Shown here in pieces: positions 18,007-27,345 of a DNA stretch of 30,489 bases. The stretch's first letter is position 1. Each line of letters opens with the position of its first letter. This stretch comes from a virus. Made by a program: the position numbers and the translations under genes. The notes below the pieces were generated by a model. The model saw only the letters and a program-made list of their open reading frames with translations. It ran no database searches and was not told the origin of the DNA. The stretch lies in the IMG/VR virus record IMGVR_UViG_3300022074_000239; one strand, given 5' to 3'.

Positions 18007-18318
18007 TCAGATTGTTGCTTGTTTGGAGCTGTTGCAACTTCGACAAAAGATTTCCAAAGTTTGATAATCATCCCCACCTTTGCTTGTTGGTATAGGATGA
18101 TCAGCTGTCAGATCAGTTGAGAAGTGTGGTTTCCTTTTATATCCAGAACACACATATCCATATTGATCAATGTGTCTTTGCACAGCTTCTTTTCTATATT
18201 TTCTCTGTGCGTATGTGACAGTCTTTGGCTTCTTATAATATTTCTTCTTGATCCTATGCTGTGGACACTTTCTTTGATCCGAAACTTTTCCACAGTCATA
18301 ACAGAAAAACTTTGGCAC
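18007..18318 (-). CDS. HNH endonuclease (terminase-associated)
   Basis: 103 aa with CYDCG...CPQH...DHPIPTSKGG...CRSCNSSK. Lies immediately upstream of terS, as in HK97-like cos phages. Confidence 0.85.
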   Translation of the reverse strand: MPKFFCYDCGKVSDQRKCPQHRIKKKYYKKPKTVTYAQRKYRKEAVQRHIDQYGYVCSGYKRKPHFSTDLTADHPIPTSKGGDDYQTLEIFCRSCNSSKQATI

Positions 18319-18977: not shown

Positions 18978-19130
18978 AAGATATTTATTTCTGAGATAGA
19001 AATTGGATTATTGGTATAACTATATCAGCTAAATGGAACTCAATTAAAAATTTGCCCATATTTCTTGATTATTTTAATTCTCACTACTGATTGAATATTT
19101 CTGCTTTTATTTAAAGCAAATAAATATTAT

Positions 19131-19240
19131 CTTATGTTTTCTTATCTTATCTTCTCTTATCTTATGTCAGAATTTCCGACTGCTTTCCGATGGAAATCCA
19201 ACTGCTTTCCAAAGAAAGTCGGTGGAAAGTCGTAGGAAAT
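19131..19240. repeat. Iteron-like short repeat cluster
   Basis: CTTAT appears five times in 5-nt register (19131-19165). ACTGCTTTCC appears twice, 22 bp apart (19179-19188, 19201-19210). Inverted CGACTTTCC-like copies lie at 19214-19232. An AT-rich tract flanks the cluster (19040-19130). Confidence 0.6.
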
Positions 19241-19271: not shown

Positions 19272-19460
19272 ATGGGGAATGCTTTAGATTATAACGACAC
19301 ACACGAGCCACGAAGATTGATAGATTGTGACAATTGTGGCAAAAGGTTTCTTAATTATCCAGATAATGTCCCAACTTGTTCTGATTGTTTGCAGAATCCG
19401 ACAATTAAGAGACAAAGATCCAGAAATTCGACTCCAGTTGCATTTTTATTCGATATTTAA
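19272..19460 (+). CDS. Small zinc-ribbon protein (62 aa)
   Basis: CDNCG...CSDC pairs and a basic tail. No SD upstream, so coding status is uncertain. Confidence 0.45.
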   Translation: MGNALDYNDTHEPRRLIDCDNCGKRFLNYPDNVPTCSDCLQNPTIKRQRSRNSTPVAFLFDI

Positions 19461-19679: not shown

Positions 19680-19754
19680 GCAGTAGTAGTTCAGTGGTAG
19701 AACGCCTCGTTGCCAACGAGGAAGTCGGGAGTTCGAATCTCCTCTACTGCTCCA
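19680..19754 (+). tRNA. tRNA-Gly (anticodon GCC), CCA encoded
   Basis: Cloverleaf folded by hand. Acceptor stem GCAGTAG/CTACTGC; D stem GTTC/GAAC; anticodon stem CCTCG/CGAGG with loop TTGCCAA; T stem GGGAG/CTCCT with loop TTCGAAT; discriminator T then CCA. Confidence 0.9.
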
Positions 19755-21047
19755 CTAATCTTGTTCTGGTTTATAACCCTTATCAAATGAATCAGCCATT
19801 CTCTTCTTGAGATCCATATCTTCTTTGATATAGTACTCACGAGTCACACGATCATTCTTATGTCCTAAGTGATTGGCAATATCAGTTGAACTCCAACCAA
19901 GACCAGCAAGAACTGTTGCTGATGTGTGTCTTGTATATTTAGGAGACTTGAGTGGTCTTTCAATACCAACCAACTCTTGAATCCGAATAAAGTTCTTTCT
20001 GAAATAATCTAAATTGATCAGATGTCCGAACTTATTAACAAAGAGATATTGATCTTCGTGATATACACCGAGAAGATCTAACTCCACAGCTAACTGTTGA
20101 ACATAGTCAATGACTGCATCTGGACAAGATTGTATTCTCTGAGATGAGGATTTGACCTTTGATTCATCATATACCCATCCAGTTATCTCTCCATTTTCAT
20201 TGTTAGATGCTTTCTTTGAGATAGCTTTATTGATCACAACTTCTTTATTGATGAAATCAAAGTCACTAAACTTCAAAGCCATAAGCTCTCCAGTTCTTAG
20301 ACCTAGATAAAATCCAAGACAGAATCTTCCATACCAAGTGATCGGAGGAATATTTCCAGTTGAATTTCTCATTTCAATATGAGTTCCAGTGTCTCTTGTG
20401 ACCTCGACTCTAGTCTTTGGAATGTGTCGGAGCTTCTCAAGATTTGTGTGGATCTCTTCTAGTGACCAAGTTTCATCTCGCATCTCATTAAAGATCCTCT
20501 CATCTCTCTCTTGTTGCTCTTGAGTTCTTCTTTCAAGTTTGACATTTGCTAGGGGATTAGCATCGATCTGATTCATTGTTCTTGCTAGATCAAGCAGAGT
20601 CCTCAGTTCTGTCTTGTAGTTCTGAATTGATGCTGGTTTCAATCCTCGATCTTTTAATCTTTTGAGGTATTTATACATCATCGAACTTGTTATATCTTCG
20701 AGCTTTATATCCCAAAGACCTATTTCTTTCCAGAATTTTATTGATGCGTTGATCTGTGCTTTATTAACAACAGACACTTGTCTCTCAGCTTTGAGCCAGT
20801 GAGTCAATGCAAACTCTCCAACAGTCATTGCATCTTCTTTTGTCACGAGCTTTAGAGAGTCTCTAGTGTTAAGATCATCAACAATCTTCTTGCTAAAACG
20901 ATCAGCTTCAGCTTTTGTCTTCTGAACTTTGCCATTCTTAACTTGTTTAACTCCATCTTTGTCAAAGACCACATATCTTGGTCTCCAACCAATAGATCCA
21001 GATTTATAATTTATCTTCTGGCTTCGATATACTTTTGCTTCTTTCAT
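19755..21047 (-). CDS. int: Tyrosine integrase
   Basis: The C-terminus carries ...YTRHTSATVLAG...ANHLGHKNDRVTREYY (R-H-R-Y type boxes). Start moved to ATG 21047 (MKEAKVYRSQ...), which follows AAGGAGA. The track's N-terminal extension is non-coding repeat DNA. The TAG stop abuts the tRNA CCA end. Confidence 0.9.
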   Translation of the reverse strand: MKEAKVYRSQKINYKSGSIGWRPRYVVFDKDGVKQVKNGKVQKTKAEADRFSKKIVDDLNTRDSLKLVTKEDAMTVGEFALTHWLKAERQVSVVNKAQINASIKFWKEIGLWDIKLEDITSSMMYKYLKRLKDRGLKPASIQNYKTELRTLLDLARTMNQIDANPLANVKLERRTQEQQERDERIFNEMRDETWSLEEIHTNLEKLRHIPKTRVEVTRDTGTHIEMRNSTGNIPPITWYGRFCLGFYLGLRTGELMALKFSDFDFINKEVVINKAISKKASNNENGEITGWVYDESKVKSSSQRIQSCPDAVIDYVQQLAVELDLLGVYHEDQYLFVNKFGHLINLDYFRKNFIRIQELVGIERPLKSPKYTRHTSATVLAGLGWSSTDIANHLGHKNDRVTREYYIKEDMDLKKRMADSFDKGYKPEQD

Positions 21048-21096
21048 TATTTCTCCTTTTAATAGGATAAATAACCATTGGAACTCGATGAGAAAA

Positions 21097-21128
21097 ATGC
21101 ACACGAATGCACACAAACTGCACACAGA
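21097..21128 (+). repeat. Three tandem TGCACAC(A/G)(A/G)A repeats upstream of int
   Basis: ATGCACACGA, ATGCACACAA, (AC), TGCACACAGA at 10-12-bp spacing. Confidence 0.8.
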
Positions 21129-21201
21129 CTTTGAGAACTGTGAGAAGTATGAGACATAAGATAAACAATTGACCAATAAATCACTGGCAATTTATAATTA
21201 T

Positions 21202-21527: not shown

Positions 21528-21857
21528 TCAACCTTTTCTTCTTCTTTCTGGAAATAAGTCACGCACCTTTCGATTGTTGTGCAGTCCTTTTCTTTGAGCT
21601 GGGATAGTTCCACCCCAGACACCCTCTGAACAATAGTTTTTAATCGCATAAGCAAGACATTCAGCTCTGACTGGACATTGCAGACAGATGTCGATTGCTT
21701 GTTTGTATTCCTTGTTTAAGGATCTACCTTTTAGATCTCTTTCCATAATGAATAGGGAAGTGTCACTTGATACACAAGCTCCTTGCTCTTTCCATTGATA
21801 TTCTGGATCTGAGATCAATTGTTTGACTTCAGACAATGTCAGATGATCATTTGTCAT
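21528..21857 (-). CDS. whiB: WhiB-like transcription factor
   Basis: Cys-Xn-Cys-X2-Cys-X5-Cys (GACV...DICLQCPVRAEC) plus GVWGG and a basic tail. I prefer ATG 21857 over the track's TTG 21917; neither has a clear SD. Confidence 0.8.
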   Translation of the reverse strand: MTNDHLTLSEVKQLISDPEYQWKEQGACVSSDTSLFIMERDLKGRSLNKEYKQAIDICLQCPVRAECLAYAIKNYCSEGVWGGTIPAQRKGLHNNRKVRDLFPERRRKG

Positions 21858-21966
21858 AGTGGGCTGTCCAGAATCGAACTGGATCTTTTGTCTGGACTTT
21901 CTGAGTTCTCGATTCAAAAGAAGACCATCTCAGCCCTGTTGCCCTCAAGAATGGGATCTGAGGGGC

Positions 21967-22455
21967 TTAAAATGGAGCATCTTGCTCCTTTATCTCGATA
22001 TGGACTTTCGGCAATCTAAGGATTGCATCGAGAAGAGTGTTTAATTGTTCAAGATCACTGCTCTCAAGAGTTTTATGAGCTAGATCTCTTAAATCACGAT
22101 AATTTGTGATCTGAGCTTCTTTATTCACTGCATACTGCTTGACTTGAGCTTCTATCTTCCACATTGCATTTGCAGTCACGAGTTCATCTTCATCAGTTGG
22201 AAGTTCTCCAATAACTTCTTGACCATTAAGCCATTCATTTGCATCTCTGTATCTTTGCAAATGGCTATTGTTCAGCCATCCAACATCTTGAGCTATCTCA
22301 TTCAATAAGACATACGCATCAACAACTTTCTTCTTGAGCTGTTTTAATTGATCAACTTTCTTCTTGTGTAGATCATCAAGAGCTTCTTCTTCTGAATTAA
22401 CCAAGATCGGATCTGGTTGAGCCATATAGTCTGAAACTTTTCCAAAGTAGCTCAT
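21967..22455 (-). CDS. Hypothetical early protein (162 aa) ending in DAPF
   Basis: Start moved to ATG 22455 (GGGAGGA RBS; ATGA overlap with the upstream stop). C-terminus is ...EIKEQDAPF*. Confidence 0.65.
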   Translation of the reverse strand: MSYFGKVSDYMAQPDPILVNSEEEALDDLHKKKVDQLKQLKKKVVDAYVLLNEIAQDVGWLNNSHLQRYRDANEWLNGQEVIGELPTDEDELVTANAMWKIEAQVKQYAVNKEAQITNYRDLRDLAHKTLESSDLEQLNTLLDAILRLPKVHIEIKEQDAPF

Positions 22456-22829
22456 TTGATCCTCCCAGCTTGAAATTCTTCTCCAAACCACTGATCAAAG
22501 TTATCATCGATCATTGATTTTCTATTAAGTCCCAACAATCTGACATTTCTTTCATTGATCAGATCATCTGGCTCAATTGTTGTTCTACTGAAAGCAAGTC
22601 TTTGATCATTTGCTCTGACCATTGCTTTTCTATTCATCACAAGAGCTTCGACAAGATTGTTCTCAATGTCTTGCAATTGTTTTAATTGATTCGCAGATTC
22701 GAAATATTGTTGCTTATTAAAATCCCATCGTTGATCTATTGATACAATCTCAACTTGTGGATAATGTGTATGAGCATACATCATTTCTTCTGTTTGTTTT
22801 ATTGGGGCTGGTTGAATATCTTCTGCCAT
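22452..22829 (-). CDS. Hypothetical early protein (125 aa)
   Basis: AGGAG RBS. No recognised domain. Confidence 0.65.
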   Translation of the reverse strand: MAEDIQPAPIKQTEEMMYAHTHYPQVEIVSIDQRWDFNKQQYFESANQLKQLQDIENNLVEALVMNRKAMVRANDQRLAFSRTTIEPDDLINERNVRLLGLNRKSMIDDNFDQWFGEEFQAGRIK

Positions 22830-22842
22830 ATTCTTCTCCTAT

Positions 22843-23334
22843 TTAAAATGGAACATCCTTATGATCTTCCTCTGATTTTTTGTCGAATGGATCTATTTCA
22901 ACAGTGTCTTCTTTTGGAGCTGGAGGGACTTCAGTCTTGATCCAGTCTTGTGGAAGATCCTTTGAATTAAGCCACCACGACTTTCTGAGCATTCCATATT
23001 GACCTTGTTTTCTACCACTGCAATCAGTGTTGTTAGAACAGACAAAGTCTGGGCTCTTCTCTTTATATTCCCCAGATCTCTTTTGTGGTCTATTGTCAAA
23101 GACTTTAGATTCACATAGATAACAGACAAGGTTTTGTCTTGGGGGAGTTGTCTCTGTCACTGGAATAACCTCATTGATCATCTCCACTGGATCTGATGGT
23201 GGCTCTTCCTCGATAACAGATGGCACTTCGTTTTCTTGTGTTTGCAGTAGTTCAGCCAAGATCTTCTCAGCTTCATCAATTGCTTGTTTTGACAGCTCTA
23301 TCTTTTGAAGAGCTTGATCAATATTTATGTTCAT
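22843..23334 (-). CDS. Zinc-ribbon protein with acidic DVPF tail (possible non-canonical ssDNA-binding protein)
   Basis: 163 aa: N-terminal helix, Pro-rich linker, C4 ribbon (CYLC...SPDFVCSNNTDC) resembling topoisomerase-type zinc ribbons, and C-terminus ...EEDHKDVPF*. Confidence 0.4.
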   Translation of the reverse strand: MNINIDQALQKIELSKQAIDEAEKILAELLQTQENEVPSVIEEEPPSDPVEMINEVIPVTETTPPRQNLVCYLCESKVFDNRPQKRSGEYKEKSPDFVCSNNTDCSGRKQGQYGMLRKSWWLNSKDLPQDWIKTEVPPAPKEDTVEIDPFDKKSEEDHKDVPF

Positions 23335-24581: not shown

Positions 24582-24969
24582 TGCCATCCTCCATTTGTTC
24601 GATCCATTTTTTCATCTTTGCTTCACGAGATTTCTCTTCGATCTGTTTATTGACTTCACCTTTTGGAATTGGCATCAATCCAGTTCTAAAACGATTGAAG
24701 TGCTTCACATAAGCAAAAGGGGATGGGATGTGATGAAAGTGTGCAATATAAGACTGCTGGGCAATTTTCATCTCATCAAGACTTGGCTCTTGTGCTACTA
24801 GATCCCAATAGCATTTCATAAAACCAGACTTCTGCTGATCACTCATTCTCATATCTGTATTAGTGAGAAGAGCAAGTTGCTCAAATATCTGATCCTTAAT
24901 AAGTGGAAATATCTTTTCACGCCAAGAAGAGTCAGACTGAGATTGAAAAGCTGATAATTCTTTTGACAT
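24574..24969 (-). CDS. Hypothetical early protein (131 aa)
   Basis: TAATG overlap with the upstream gene. No recognised domain. Confidence 0.6.
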   Translation of the reverse strand: MSKELSAFQSQSDSSWREKIFPLIKDQIFEQLALLTNTDMRMSDQQKSGFMKCYWDLVAQEPSLDEMKIAQQSYIAHFHHIPSPFAYVKHFNRFRTGLMPIPKGEVNKQIEEKSREAKMKKWIEQMEDGNE

Positions 24970-25352
24970 TATAAATCTCCCTCAGTCTGTTTTCTCTTCT
25001 TATCACGATCAAGTTTCAGAATGGTCTGACCAATTTTTTTCTCCCAATCTGGTAGGGACACAGTCCCATCAACTTCATCGATCCACGAACAATCGTGCAA
25101 TGCTTTATATATCTGATCACCATCTAAATCCAGAGCCATAATGCTTGGGAGATGGTCTTTTGTGACTTGTAGCTTTCCAGACATAAGGATTCCTTTTCCA
25201 TCTGGGAAGTCAGTTATTGATATAGACCACAGTCTCACTAGAGCTCCTATGGTCTCATTAATTGTGATCCCAAGTGTTTTTGCTATGTGGATCACTTCAA
25301 ATTTGTTGAATATCCTTGAATCAAGTTGAAACCAAATATCTCTCTTCGCCAT
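24969..25352 (-). CDS. Hypothetical early protein, weakly replisome-organiser-like N-terminus
   Basis: MAKRDIWFQLDSRIFNKFEVIHIAKTLG...GALVRLW resembles the W-x-K/Q-L-D...F start of phage replication organiser proteins. Weak. Confidence 0.3.
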   Translation of the reverse strand: MAKRDIWFQLDSRIFNKFEVIHIAKTLGITINETIGALVRLWSISITDFPDGKGILMSGKLQVTKDHLPSIMALDLDGDQIYKALHDCSWIDEVDGTVSLPDWEKKIGQTILKLDRDKKRKQTEGDL

Positions 25353-25540
25353 TATTGATCACCTCTGATCAACGACATAAGAACAGATTTTTCAACCCTT
25401 AAAGGTTTAAGTTTGGTTGATGATCCAGTCGGTACAGCTTGAAGCTGTCCAGTATCAATCAACCGATAAGTTGTAGCTTTGCTCCAGCCAGTGAGTTCAA
25501 CAATCTCCTTGACTGAGAGCAACAATTTGCTGTCTTGCAT
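25352..25540 (-). CDS. HTH_17 / excisionase-family DNA-binding protein (Xis- or Cro-like)
   Basis: 62 aa with LSVKEIVELTGWSKATTYRLIDTGQLQAV. It is the first gene of the early operon and has an AGAGGA RBS. Confidence 0.75.
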   Translation of the reverse strand: MQDSKLLLSVKEIVELTGWSKATTYRLIDTGQLQAVPTGSSTKLKPLRVEKSVLMSLIRGDQ

Positions 25541-25638
25541 ATCATTCCTCTTGGTCTTGGAGAAGTTTCAAAAATTCTATGGTCTCTAAAGGAGACACAC
25601 AGCCCCATCAAATTTTTCAATCTTCTCTTCTTTCCCTC

Positions 25639-25676
25639 TGGGAAACTATTGACATAATTATGTCTCTATTTTCCCA
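25639..25676. promoter_or_regulatory. Operator O1: TGGGAAA-N24-TTTCCCA enclosing palindrome GACATAATTATGTC
   Basis: Read directly. The outer 7-mers are perfect inverted repeats, and the inner 14-bp palindrome lies at 25651-25664. Confidence 0.6.
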
Positions 25677-25715: not shown

Positions 25716-25753
25716 TGGGAAATAAAAGACAAGTATTTTAATTATTTTTCCCA
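25716..25753. promoter_or_regulatory. Operator O2: TGGGAAA-N24-TTTCCCA
   Basis: Same 7-mers and the same 24-nt spacing as O1, with centres 77 bp apart. Lies between the two divergent promoters. Confidence 0.6.
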
Positions 25754-25758
25754 AACTC

Positions 25759-25786
25759 TTGACTTAGAGAATCGATGATTTATGAT
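25759..25786 (+). promoter_or_regulatory. Promoter of the 455-aa gene (leaderless configuration)
   Basis: TTGACT (25759-25764), 16-nt spacer, TATGAT (25781-25786). The ATG at 25795 is 8 nt after the -10, with no SD in between (TAATAATT). Confidence 0.55.
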
Positions 25787-25794
25787 TAATAATT

Positions 25795-27162
25795 ATGAGC
25801 AAAGAAATAATGAACAACGATTCTGAGAAGCAGAGCTTGTTTGCATATGATATTGATGCAAACTATCGTGATCTATTCTTTTCATTAAAAGACAAGAAAG
25901 TCAGAAGTCTATTTCAAAAGAAGTGGGACTCTGTTTTATATACTGGACAGACTGGTGGCTTCTTAAATACTTTTCAGATCCATATGGATAAAGACATTAT
26001 GTTTCCAGAGCATAAGTTCATTCAAGATGACTTCAAGGTTGCTCATATAAATAATTTTTTTAATAGCATTCCAAACTCTGATCCAGATCCATATGTTGAG
26101 CAGAATCTTATTGATTTGAGAAAGTCCACACTTGCTGAAGCAATATTTGTTGGAACTCTTAGTTCAGAGGATCTATTTAGACCATCAGCTTTCTGGAGTT
26201 ATGATCTTGGACAGAATTTAGCTGAAAAGGGGATTGCTAAGAAATTGAAGACTGATGTCTTTTATATAACTGCAATCGTATTCCAACCAAATCAAAGTGT
26301 TCAGTTTGTTTGTTTTGAGACAGTTTATTCTTATGCACAATTAAAAAAACTAGCAAAGAATCTTGATCAACCATTTGGAGAATCATTGTTTGGACTTGAT
26401 AAAAGAAAAAACAATTTTATTGCTCATATAGATCAGCTCAATGGATTTTTGTTGTTGTTGAATGATGATGACACTGCAATATGGAGTGCCGATAGAATTG
26501 AAGCTACTGAGATAATTGATAGATATATTTTTATAAGAAAATTTTGTGCAAACCTTTCTCATCATCACTTATCAACTGAATTAGCTAGAAAAGGAATTGC
26601 AACAGATCACAAAAGACTTGCTTATTGGGAGAAGTCTGAATCTAAGACACCAGCATTTGTGAAAGATCAGAATTTATTTAAAGCATTGATCAAGGTATTA
26701 GCAGAAAGATCATTTGCTTTGTTTGAATATTATTTGAGGGATTCAGTGGGAGAAGATCTTGTCCCATTGCATAAGATTGAGACTTGGATCAGAGAATTTG
26801 TATTATTTGGAAGAGATTCATCATTGATCGACATTCCAGAGTTTATAGATAATTTTATTTATTTTGATGATGGGGAAAAGAAGAACTCAGTCAAGAAAGA
26901 GTATGAACAAGTCTTGATGAAAACCAAACTTGATAAGAGTCTCAGAGAGAATATCAATATCTGGTCGGCTAGAGATTTGGATGATTCACCAGTACAGATC
27001 ATTCAGTTCACAAATATGCTTGGACAAATGTCTGATGCTGATGTTGTTGAGTGGACAGAGGATTTATATCAAGATGATCAAGACAAATATGAAGTGTTTA
27101 AACTTTGGAAGTTCTTAAATAAAAGAATTGGGGAGTTCCAAGAATTAGAGCCCCCCTTTTAA
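25795..27162 (+). CDS. Repressor-position protein with internal XRE-like HTH and SSB-tip-like C-terminus (455 aa)
   Basis: The only large plus-strand gene, divergent from the early operon. Residues ~244-305 (nt 26524-26709) read IFIRKFCANLSHHHLSTELARKGIATDHKRLAYWEKSESKTPAFV, matching an XRE HTH pattern. Ends ...ELEPPF*. The N-terminal 240 aa and C-terminal 150 aa are unrecognised. Confidence 0.5.
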   Translation: MSKEIMNNDSEKQSLFAYDIDANYRDLFFSLKDKKVRSLFQKKWDSVLYTGQTGGFLNTFQIHMDKDIMFPEHKFIQDDFKVAHINNFFNSIPNSDPDPYVEQNLIDLRKSTLAEAIFVGTLSSEDLFRPSAFWSYDLGQNLAEKGIAKKLKTDVFYITAIVFQPNQSVQFVCFETVYSYAQLKKLAKNLDQPFGESLFGLDKRKNNFIAHIDQLNGFLLLLNDDDTAIWSADRIEATEIIDRYIFIRKFCANLSHHHLSTELARKGIATDHKRLAYWEKSESKTPAFVKDQNLFKALIKVLAERSFALFEYYLRDSVGEDLVPLHKIETWIREFVLFGRDSSLIDIPEFIDNFIYFDDGEKKNSVKKEYEQVLMKTKLDKSLRENINIWSARDLDDSPVQIIQFTNMLGQMSDADVVEWTEDLYQDDQDKYEVFKLWKFLNKRIGEFQELEPPF

Positions 27163-27165
27163 TTC

Positions 27166-27345
27166 TTAATATATAAACGATCCAACTACGATCAGAGAAG
27201 TCATTATGATCCCTAAAACTGAATAAAATTCTTTCCTAGAGACTTTATCATTCAACAGATCAGAAATCTTTTCATCCATCTGATCAAGTCGATCAAGTAT
27301 CATCACGAGCATCTCTTTCTGTGTGAAGTCGTTATTTTTTGACAT
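27166..27345 (-). CDS. Small tail-anchored membrane protein (59 aa, below ORF-track cutoff)
   Basis: MSKNNDFTQKEMLVMILDRLDQMDEKISDLLNDKVSRKEFYSVLGIIMTSLIVVGSFIY*. Overlaps the holin 3' end by 14 nt. Has a C-terminal TM helix. RBS is weak. Confidence 0.45.
   Translation of the reverse strand: MSKNNDFTQKEMLVMILDRLDQMDEKISDLLNDKVSRKEFYSVLGIIMTSLIVVGSFIY

Follow-up and report, generated by a model that had tools for sequence, protein, structure and literature searches.

The gene at 25795-27162 of IMG/VR virus record IMGVR_UViG_3300022074_000239, a DNA stretch of 30,489 nucleotides (hereafter the window), encodes a 455-amino-acid protein that we read, with about even confidence, as a large immunity repressor of the C/CI type. 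It would belong to a switch like those of phages P2 and 186, and would be docked through a C-terminal motif that resembles the tip of SSB (the bacterial protein that binds single-stranded DNA) and is shared with other proteins of the same phage. We infer its binding to DNA, repression by it, its expression in lysogens, and the role of its tail from sequence patterns and structure prediction.

The argument begins with position. With its ~30.5 kb the window represents the complete genome, circularly permuted, of a temperate phage, in which all recognizable genes other than that of a tRNA-Gly lie on the minus strand and in which the open reading frame (ORF) of the 455-amino-acid protein is the sole sizeable one on the plus strand. 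This ORF starts with ATG and ends in ...EFQELEPPF*; its conserved start is at 25795 (MSK...), and many gene callers choose Met6. Because homologs ranging from 75% to ~20% identity preserve both its frame and its genomic position, we consider the gene real. The layout is that of CI/LexA-type repressors, with the gene divergent from the early lytic operon and operator-like sites between them. The genes concerned are the following:

25795..27162 including the stop codon, plus strand: gene of the 455-amino-acid protein, flanked by the lysis block and the early operon and the only gene on the opposite strand there
25352..25540, minus strand: first early gene, with a Shine-Dalgarno sequence, for a 62-amino-acid HTH_17 protein that is Cox/Apl/Xis-like and has Cox-like PHROG matches
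24969-25352, minus strand: gene of a well-conserved protein like a replication initiator or replisome organizer

This is the arrangement of P2 C and 186 CI with Cox and Apl: a lone repressor gene stands opposite an early operon led by a small Cox/Apl-like helix-turn-helix (HTH) gene, with paired operators in a short divergent promoter region, and the HTH_17 protein is a candidate for the Cro/Cox counterpart. P2 C (99 amino acids) and 186 CI (192 amino acids) are both small. The present protein shows no sequence or detectable fold similarity to them and differs in its 455 amino acids, its mid-protein HTH, and its SSB-tip-like tail; further, the integrase here lies inside the early operon. No match to an XRE, CI, or S24 family was found among the other window ORFs, nor was any repressor-type protein found in the relative that was examined, and the only other recognizable DNA-binding regulators in the window are the HTH_17 protein and a WhiB protein. 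The other window ORFs likewise include no ImmA/IrrE metalloprotease family. The 455-amino-acid protein itself matches neither Peptidase_S24 nor a related family with a Ser-Lys dyad in Pfam or NCBIfam, and a motif check found no S24, HExxH, Walker A, or CxxC motif in it. A first-pass annotation, made from the letters alone, had described the only gene divergent from the early operon as an unusual protein in the CI position, with an HTH-like segment between two other domains, no S24 or HExxH motif, an SSB-like tip, sites named O1 and O2, and no small CI/S24 repressor elsewhere on the genome; the position, the three-part anatomy, the sites, the tip, and the absences all hold.

Within the protein, the most conserved block of the family follows the pattern QRFxFVRxYLxGLSQNxLAxxL...GIxxDQKxIxYWEK....PxF. 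It contains the segment LSTELARKGIATDHKRLAYWEKSESKTP (residues 259-286), has nearly invariant R243, R248, W278, E279, and P286, and is the sole basic segment of the protein:

26512..26733, plus strand: five-helix divergent XRE-like HTH block, residues 240-313, net charge +3
26608..26634, plus strand: putative recognition helix, residues 272-280, HKRLAYWEK (TDHKRL in this clade), placed with AlphaFold2 and the allele alignment

We consider it quite probable, from profile comparison and predicted structure, that residues 240-313 form a divergent XRE-type HTH. AlphaFold2 predicts helices of XRE-like lengths at 240-251, 256-265, 272-280, 292-305, and 307-313, with predicted local distance difference test scores (pLDDT) of 85-93. 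Compared by hhalign with an XRE reference profile made from five classical domains (434 Cro, 434 repressor, P22 C2, SinR, and HipB), the profile of the block aligned in the correct register at a probability of 86-88% (P 2.7e-6 to 5e-6), with R..R in helix 1, S-Q..LA in helix 2, and a recognition helix that ends in W/I-E and is followed by proline. The reference profile retrieves exactly those PDB entries (E ~1e-30) and extends to ICEBs1 ImmR, DdrO, Stl, and ClgR, and as controls reversed references gave P 0.29 and the protein's other two domains P 0.28-0.8, marking the alignment as specific. A POU-specific-type HTH was also tried, and its register was plausible and its P of 0.054 not significant; one family member has a weak POU-specific match (E 0.088). 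The block thus aligns in register with the domains of 434, P22, SinR, and HipB, but the protein differs from lambda CI, 434 repressor, and P22 C2 in having no S24 domain, an HTH that is not N-terminal, a longer turn, and no Pfam HTH_3 match. As a side observation, the best PDB match of the block's profile (residues 255-300, ~26557-26694) is the anti-CRISPR AcrIF25 (8x24; E 0.012), which has the pattern ...LA..L..(D)G...D.K.I..W... in common with it, longer turn included, probably by chance.

The intergenic region upstream of the gene is AT-rich and holds a promoter and the two operator-like sites:

25759..25786, plus strand: promoter of the 455-amino-acid gene, TTGACT-16 nt-TATGAT (10/12, near-consensus), with the ATG 8 nt past the -10
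25716..25753, no strand assigned: O2, TGGGAAA-N24-TTTCCCA, its proximal half-site ending 5 bp before the -35
25639..25676, no strand assigned: O1, TGGGAAA-N24-TTTCCCA, 77 bp upstream of O2

Exact 38-bp palindromes of this form were found twice against zero expected and nowhere else in the genome, 4 of the window's 10 TGGGAAA heptamers are packed into 115 bp, and a search for degenerate extra operators elsewhere in the genome returned chance-level matches only. In a close relative (L001), the half-sites are retained and the sequence inside them has drifted. Half-sites lie 31 bp apart center to center, or about three helical turns, as against ~10 bp in lambda CI, 434 repressor, and P22 C2, so a large dimer would fit them better than would the 62-amino-acid protein. 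The half-site of O2 is centered at about -44 from the predicted start (the whole site at about -60), and thus a protein bound there could contact RNA polymerase without blocking it; in lambda, similarly, OR2 abuts the -35 of PRM. The gene has no Shine-Dalgarno sequence, the 20 nt 5' of the ATG being all A/T, and most minus-strand genes carry ribosome-binding sites of the GGAG/GAGG type. From this, from the 8 nt between the -10 and the ATG, and from a -35-to-ATG distance that stays at 34-36 nt in all of the alleles examined, we predict a leaderless mRNA as a conserved trait. Leaderless mRNAs are typical of Actinobacteria, and lambda cI mRNA made from PRM is another, a further likeness to that repressor.

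Other elements of the same region are noted for completeness. A perfect 14-bp palindrome, GACATAATTATGTC, lies inside O1 (25650-25663), is partly kept in L001, and might be bound by another protein, for example the HTH_17 product. In the interval from O1 to the first early gene, an inverted repeat with 23-nt arms (25560-25627; 83% complementary) has an inner GTCTC-N5-GAGAC hairpin and shows one compensatory stem change in L001; considered as an RNA element, it is no more stable than shuffled sequences (z -1.35). At the same place in the early leader, relatives have a hairpin with a T-run that looks like a terminator on the minus strand, located by scan in L036 (2246-2268, minus strand) and judged by eye in L011 and L012.

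Relatives carry the same arrangement with other sequences. In every one of them a pair of sites built as inverted repeats, one at about -155 to -117 and the other at about -79 to -42, is followed by CTCTTGAC, and the half-sites vary between relatives in step with the putative recognition helix of the 455-amino-acid family:

helix TDHKRL, half-site TGGGAAA: window and L001
helix IDNKG(I/V)K, half-site (T)AGGTAGA: L012, L024, L027, L030, and L034, with protein identity to P0004 (the L012 allele) down to 58%
helix IDQKG, half-site CGGTATA: L016 and L036
helix ADQKKI, half-site CGGTATTAA: L011 and L015, a clade with no match in the IMG/VR search

In L012 and L036, consensus-like minus-strand promoters stand back-to-back with the promoter of the 455-amino-acid family and have their -10 inside the proximal site, which is therefore a repressing position for the early operon. 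This bears on a reading in which the protein is a regulator of the lytic cycle, either an activator or antirepressor-like, that is made at once on infection from a strong constitutive promoter and acts positively on the divergent promoter region. The near-consensus promoter, a site geometry 5' of the -35 that is activator-like, and a weak PHROG antirepressor match in one family member (E 0.044) would suit such a regulator. However, a site that covers the early -10 in relatives is placed to repress, late minus-strand transcription would converge on the gene (the stop codons are 3 nt apart), and allelic hypervariability of the kind seen in immunity genes would be unexpected for a general activator; we regard this reading as very unlikely.

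That hypervariability is clear from pairwise comparisons of the locus, in which the 455-amino-acid gene stands well apart from its neighbors as the most divergent:

window and L014: 455-amino-acid homolog 25% identity; well-conserved flanks 73-86%; two small ORFs 49% and 61%
window and L012: homolog 26%; most neighbors 55-83%; two at 31% and 45%
window and L011: homolog 31% over 152 amino acids; most neighbors 40-77%; three at 25-38%
window and L001: homolog 75%, within the neighbors' range of 57-98%

A mosaic in which the flanks are conserved and the allele and sites between them are exchanged resembles, by analogy, the immunity regions of heteroimmune temperate phages. The same mosaic divergence is also compatible with an arms-race gene, and the first-pass annotation had proposed as its alternative a defense or exclusion protein that also binds DNA. 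On this account the protein would be a moron-like defense or superinfection-exclusion factor expressed in the lysogen, its HTH would autoregulate or sense invading DNA, its tail would intercept or starve the replication and recombination proteins of incoming phages, and repression would fall to another protein that escaped recognition. A strong promoter of its own, the opposite strand, the lower GC content, the speed of divergence, and a tail that resembles a hub motif bound by phage recombinases are all consistent with this, and SaPI2 Stl offers a precedent, a repressor reported to act in defense as well. Nonetheless, none of the family members has a PADLOC match (0 families for all 11), the gene is a core gene found in the same slot of every relative rather than variable cargo, and the ORF scans of the window offered no alternative repressor. 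We therefore favor a repressor over a pure defense protein because of the position of the gene, the HTH profile test, the operator-like sites at the switch region that co-vary with the helix, the hypervariable allele, the missing PADLOC match, and the lack of conserved catalytic-type residues outside the HTH; a defense protein is, in our estimate, unlikely.

The tail introduces a second line of evidence. The same EPPF makes up the final four residues of mycobacterial SSB, which ends in ...GGGDDEPPF in M. tuberculosis and ...GADDEPPF in M. smegmatis (PMC7847540, PMC3575820), and in the alignment of 15 family members F455 is kept in 14 and P454 in 13. The mycobacterial SSB tip activates ClpX, for which the terminal Phe is required (PMC7847540, PMC3575820), and the E. 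coli SSB tip recruits at least 17 partner proteins (PMC7145534). Two early proteins of the window end in the same way:

22843..23334, minus strand: 163-amino-acid early protein ending in ...EEDHKDVPF, with a zinc-ribbon core, acidic proline-rich linkers, and the tip
21967..22491, minus strand: 174-amino-acid early protein ending in ...KEQDAPF, a tip of the same class as in the 455-amino-acid protein

Neither protein has a Pfam, PHROG, or PDB match (75 unannotated clusters). In the 163-amino-acid protein the zinc-ribbon core has the pattern CxxC...C...C and many aromatic and basic residues, and the layout is SSB-like without the OB fold. Tips are also present in divergent relatives (KDIPF, KESPF, and GVPFN in the 163-amino-acid family; PPPF and ETPF in the 174-amino-acid family), and among 34 sampled cluster representatives of the 163-amino-acid family almost all complete ones end in acidic-x-(L/I/V/S)-P-F, plus or minus one or two residues. 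By a rough estimate from two-residue frequencies, ~0.1 of ~45 proteins would be expected to end in P-F, so three such tips in one phage are far above chance. Their presence on three proteins, kept across deep divergence, argues for a docking motif that is lineage-wide rather than private to the 455-amino-acid protein.

The tip resembles that of bacterial SSB (DDDIPF in E. coli, DDEPPF in mycobacteria) in being a disordered C-terminus that ends in acidic-x-P-F with a nearly invariant terminal Phe; in contrast to SSB, the 455-amino-acid protein has no SSB or OB family match in Pfam or NCBIfam, and Foldseek returned no OB protein for it. Its partner could be a host protein that binds SSB tips or a phage protein. 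A broader proposal, tentative and on balance unlikely, is that this phage lineage has put the SSB-tip-like P-F tail on three unrelated proteins, the lysogeny repressor among them, as a functional docking motif, which would wire the switch to the host SSB interactome (e.g., ClpX or a fork/repair protein) or to a hand-off with the early proteins and so permit induction independent of RecA-dependent self-cleavage, in a repressor with two unrecognized folds. In a literature search, no repressor or switch protein turned up that was reported to end in an SSB-tip motif. In phage T7, gp2.5 and gp4 share acidic C-terminal tails ending in Phe, so that there, too, several proteins of one phage have a common C-terminal docking tail; both T7 carriers, however, are replisome proteins, and the three carriers here include a putative transcription regulator encoded on the opposite strand.

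The shared tip makes more plausible a reading in which the 455-amino-acid protein is a hub of replication or recombination, namely, an origin-binding or replisome-organizing protein, with the paired sites as origin and the P-F tip recruiting the same host or phage replisome component as do the 163- and 174-amino-acid proteins, in parallel with the tails of T7 gp2.5 and gp4. A conserved tip on three proteins of one phage, two of them in the replication module, would accord with this, as would the AT-richness of the intergenic region and the covariation of initiators with their sites among related phages, which is established for the O proteins of lambdoid phages. Against such a hub, the gene lies on the opposite strand and has a leaderless promoter of its own, while replication genes share the transcript of the early operon; a conserved initiator-like or organizer-like protein is already encoded at 24969-25352; and the sites are two inverted ones rather than an iteron array, with a separate cluster of tandem repeats at 19127-19235. 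We hold this reading to be quite unlikely.

The repressor reading itself has to be weighed against several results that count against it. The window protein has no match to Pfam HTH_3 or any other HTH family at E <=10, and the 11 members scanned have none to an HTH family at E <=1; the family HTH profile retrieved no XRE chain from the PDB, its matches there being limited to AcrIF25 (E 0.012) and the C-terminal domain of RpoN (E 0.05); Foldseek with the pLDDT-83 model placed no XRE domain among its top matches; and the turn between helices 2 and 3 has an insertion of ~5 residues. The promoter of the gene looks strong, not weak or activator-dependent like PRM, and no early promoter could be placed with confidence in the window. 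The helix of the HTH_17 protein also changes between operator classes, as that of a Cro/Cox partner sharing the operators would, which rules out assigning the operators to one protein by covariation, and sequence alone cannot name the binder. GC content is 0.33 over the gene (26001-27000) and ~0.37-0.38 in the rest of the genome, as in many morons. No integrated copy or host was found, either by scanning GTDB genomes with protein patterns or by matching an exact 45-nt probe (the 3' part of the tRNA-Gly) to GTDB representative genomes. With regard to the tip, basic residues precede PPF in the P0004 clade (KKGQKNPPF) and several alleles add one residue after the Phe, both unlike the true SSB tip, so the motif that holds family-wide is P-P-F at or next to the C-terminus rather than the full acidic tip. 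Finally, a tip common to two early proteins fits a role in replication equally well; since they share the tail, the idea of a private induction sensor is weakened and a replication or recombination network is opened.

Taken with the evidence above, these results qualify what the first-pass annotation had proposed. Its mid-protein HTH is borne out by profile-profile comparison and its controls but not by the Pfam, PDB hidden Markov model, or Foldseek searches, and the Foldseek check that it had suggested for the segments gave no significant match for either the full model or that of residues 97-320. Its new type of repressor draws strength from the slot, the HTH profile test, the co-varying operator-like sites, and the hypervariability and is tempered by the parallel covariation of the HTH_17 protein; its flanking domains as sensors of an induction signal lose ground to the extent that the EPPF-type tail is also found on the two early proteins.

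The regions around the HTH block are as follows:

25795..26088, plus strand: N-terminal region, residues 1-98, poorly predicted and variable in length
26089..26499, plus strand: alpha/beta domain, residues 99-235, a long helix and then beta-beta-beta-alpha-beta, pLDDT 80-92
26767..27135, plus strand: acidic all-helical C-terminal domain, residues 325-447, net charge -11
27136..27159, plus strand: tail, residues 448-455, EFQELEPPF, disordered in the AlphaFold2 prediction, with terminal P-P-F conserved

The AlphaFold2 model, built with the family alignment, has a mean pLDDT of 72 (80-93 in the core), and a two-domain sub-model of residues 97-320 has a pLDDT of 83 and a predicted TM-score of 0.75. 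In the alpha/beta domain W134 is invariant and no conserved polar or catalytic residues were found; the C-terminal domain has a conserved FILFG...IPEFI motif with the invariant P348 within it. Conserved positions outside the HTH block are hydrophobic or proline, with none of polar or catalytic type, which favors a binding or scaffold protein over an enzyme. Searched by Foldseek against the PDB and BFVD (full model) and against the PDB (residues 97-320), the models returned a best E of 0.03-0.15 with TM <=0.2, and the fold of the alpha/beta domain was not recognized. RNase H-like folds recurred among the matches (Hermes transposase, hexokinases, Pop2, and viral RNase H; E 0.03-3, TM <=0.2), and an RNase H-like/DDE transposase fold was considered and not assigned because these matches are at chance level and the domain has no conserved acidic residues or catalytic triad. 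Since only some alleles carry an extra zinc finger at the N-terminus, we regard this end as a variable add-on region. The finger is a DUF4379 treble-clef with CxxC, and the alleles listed with it are P0007 (L016; Pfam DUF4379 E 8e-10) and L034 (1752-3371); one member has PHROG endonuclease/HNH matches.

Database searches agree that the family is small and distinct. Pfam, PHROGs, PADLOC, and NCBIfam recognized no family in the 455-amino-acid protein, and library scans of all 11 family members (Pfam, PHROGs, and PADLOC) gave nothing consistent. Sequence searches of the PDB with the single protein and with family, HTH-only, and enriched profiles returned chance-level matches only, which we rejected (Pro-tRNA ligase, Rpo4, CNF, AcrIF25 at E 0.012, the RpoN C-terminal domain, Cas6f, and GntR). 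Among the deposited phages of INPHARED (50,697 genomes), neither tblastn nor megablast found a match. HMMER, run exhaustively against 1.84 billion cluster representatives, recovered 11 proteins of the family, which therefore appears to be tiny and confined to one phage lineage. Its members have ~420-540 amino acids and always occupy the same genomic slot; locus searches by alignment gave nothing where conservation was too low.

Large repressors without S24 are a kind already known, because SaPI Stl, SPbeta SroF, and the c repressor of phiC31 exist, and what is new here is a variant with unrecognized domains. The phiC31 c repressor is large and has an internal HTH. In these large repressors, parts other than the HTH reportedly sense an induction signal by protein contact rather than by self-cleavage, and Stl2 is reported also to act in defense. 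The present protein, in contrast, has no detectable homology to any of the three (Foldseek gave E 0.39 for the Sak-Stl2 complex, and tblastn against deposited phages was empty), and none of them is reported to end in an SSB-tip motif.

On the repressor reading, the 455-amino-acid family, with the present protein as its founder, would hold the C/CI slot of a C-Cox switch in marine, WhiB-encoding, tRNA-integrating temperate phages. The protein would dimerize through its flanking domains, which may also supply the signal input, and its divergent XRE-type HTH would read the half-sites of O1 and O2. Occupancy of O2 would shut the early operon and permit or stimulate the protein's own transcription, with O1 adding cooperativity or a roadblock, and joint allelic replacement of protein and sites would set immunity specificity. 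The acidic-x-P-F tip, common to two early-operon proteins, would serve for docking, as a short motif taken over from the tip of host SSB. Through it the regulator would be linked to a shared partner, either a phage protein or an SSB-interacting host protein (one protein documented to bind the mycobacterial tip is ClpX), and so gain a route of inactivation, or a coupling to replication, without S24 self-cleavage.

The rest of the genome is consistent in its organization. Between the replication-initiator-like gene and WhiB, the minus-strand array has seven unannotated early genes; after the integrase it continues with an HNH endonuclease, the small and large terminase genes (TerS and TerL), portal, and structural genes, and it crosses the window ends with DUF5675, a metallophosphoesterase, a holin, and small membrane proteins, the last ending at 27166. 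Features of the array outside the switch are these:

21528-21917, minus strand: WhiB, in the minus-strand array
19755-21176, minus strand: tyrosine integrase, inside the early operon
19680-19754, plus strand: complete tRNA-Gly(GCC), Rfam 72 bits, directly abutting the integrase stop codon

Because it adjoins the integrase stop codon, the tRNA-Gly(GCC) is the likely phage attachment site (attP). GC skew over 26001-27000 is opposite to that of the rest of the genome, as expected from the strand of the 455-amino-acid gene. WhiB is regarded as an actinobacteria-specific protein. Single-cell genomics has linked WhiB-encoding, tRNA-integrating phages of 24-29 kb and 33-36% GC to Ca. Actinomarinales (PMC7771536). 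The host is probably a low-GC marine actinobacterium. The same genome recurs as contigs of ~30.3-30.5 kb across many marine metagenomes, Tara Oceans included, and a near-identical copy of the 455-amino-acid gene (cluster member P0022) sits on a contig of 60,825 bp, about twice the genome size, to be explained by assembly of a concatemer or else by integration.

Three further observations concern the region around the tRNA and the terminase genes. The cluster of short tandem direct repeats at 19127-19235 (TTATCTTAT three to four times, TCCxACTGCTTTCC twice, and GAAAGTCG twice) lies within a 780-bp non-coding stretch that adjoins the tRNA and integrase; the repeats could be attP arm-type sites or an origin. 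A second plus-strand ORF, at 19272-19460, would encode 62 amino acids with a CxxC-N12-CxxC zinc-ribbon pattern; it is absent from the gene lists of relatives, and in Pfam it has a faint zinc-ribbon match only (E 0.096). The HNH endonuclease (18007-18318, minus strand; Pfam HNH_5 E 7e-7) is encoded just upstream of both terminase genes, small and large, and an HNH gene next to terminase genes is the arrangement of HNH-dependent cos packaging.

To our knowledge, almost nothing is known of how temperate phages of marine Actinobacteria, abundant and uncultured as these hosts are, decide between lysis and lysogeny. If the 455-amino-acid family is indeed one of immunity repressors, it would represent a new repressor architecture, with concrete predicted operators, promoters, and immunity alleles, and its members would be the first switch proteins with a mimic of the SSB tip. 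Further, three proteins of one phage with an SSB-tip-like motif suggest systematic hijacking of the SSB interaction hub, and the shared tip thus bears on how phages may recruit the replication, repair, or proteolysis machinery of their hosts.

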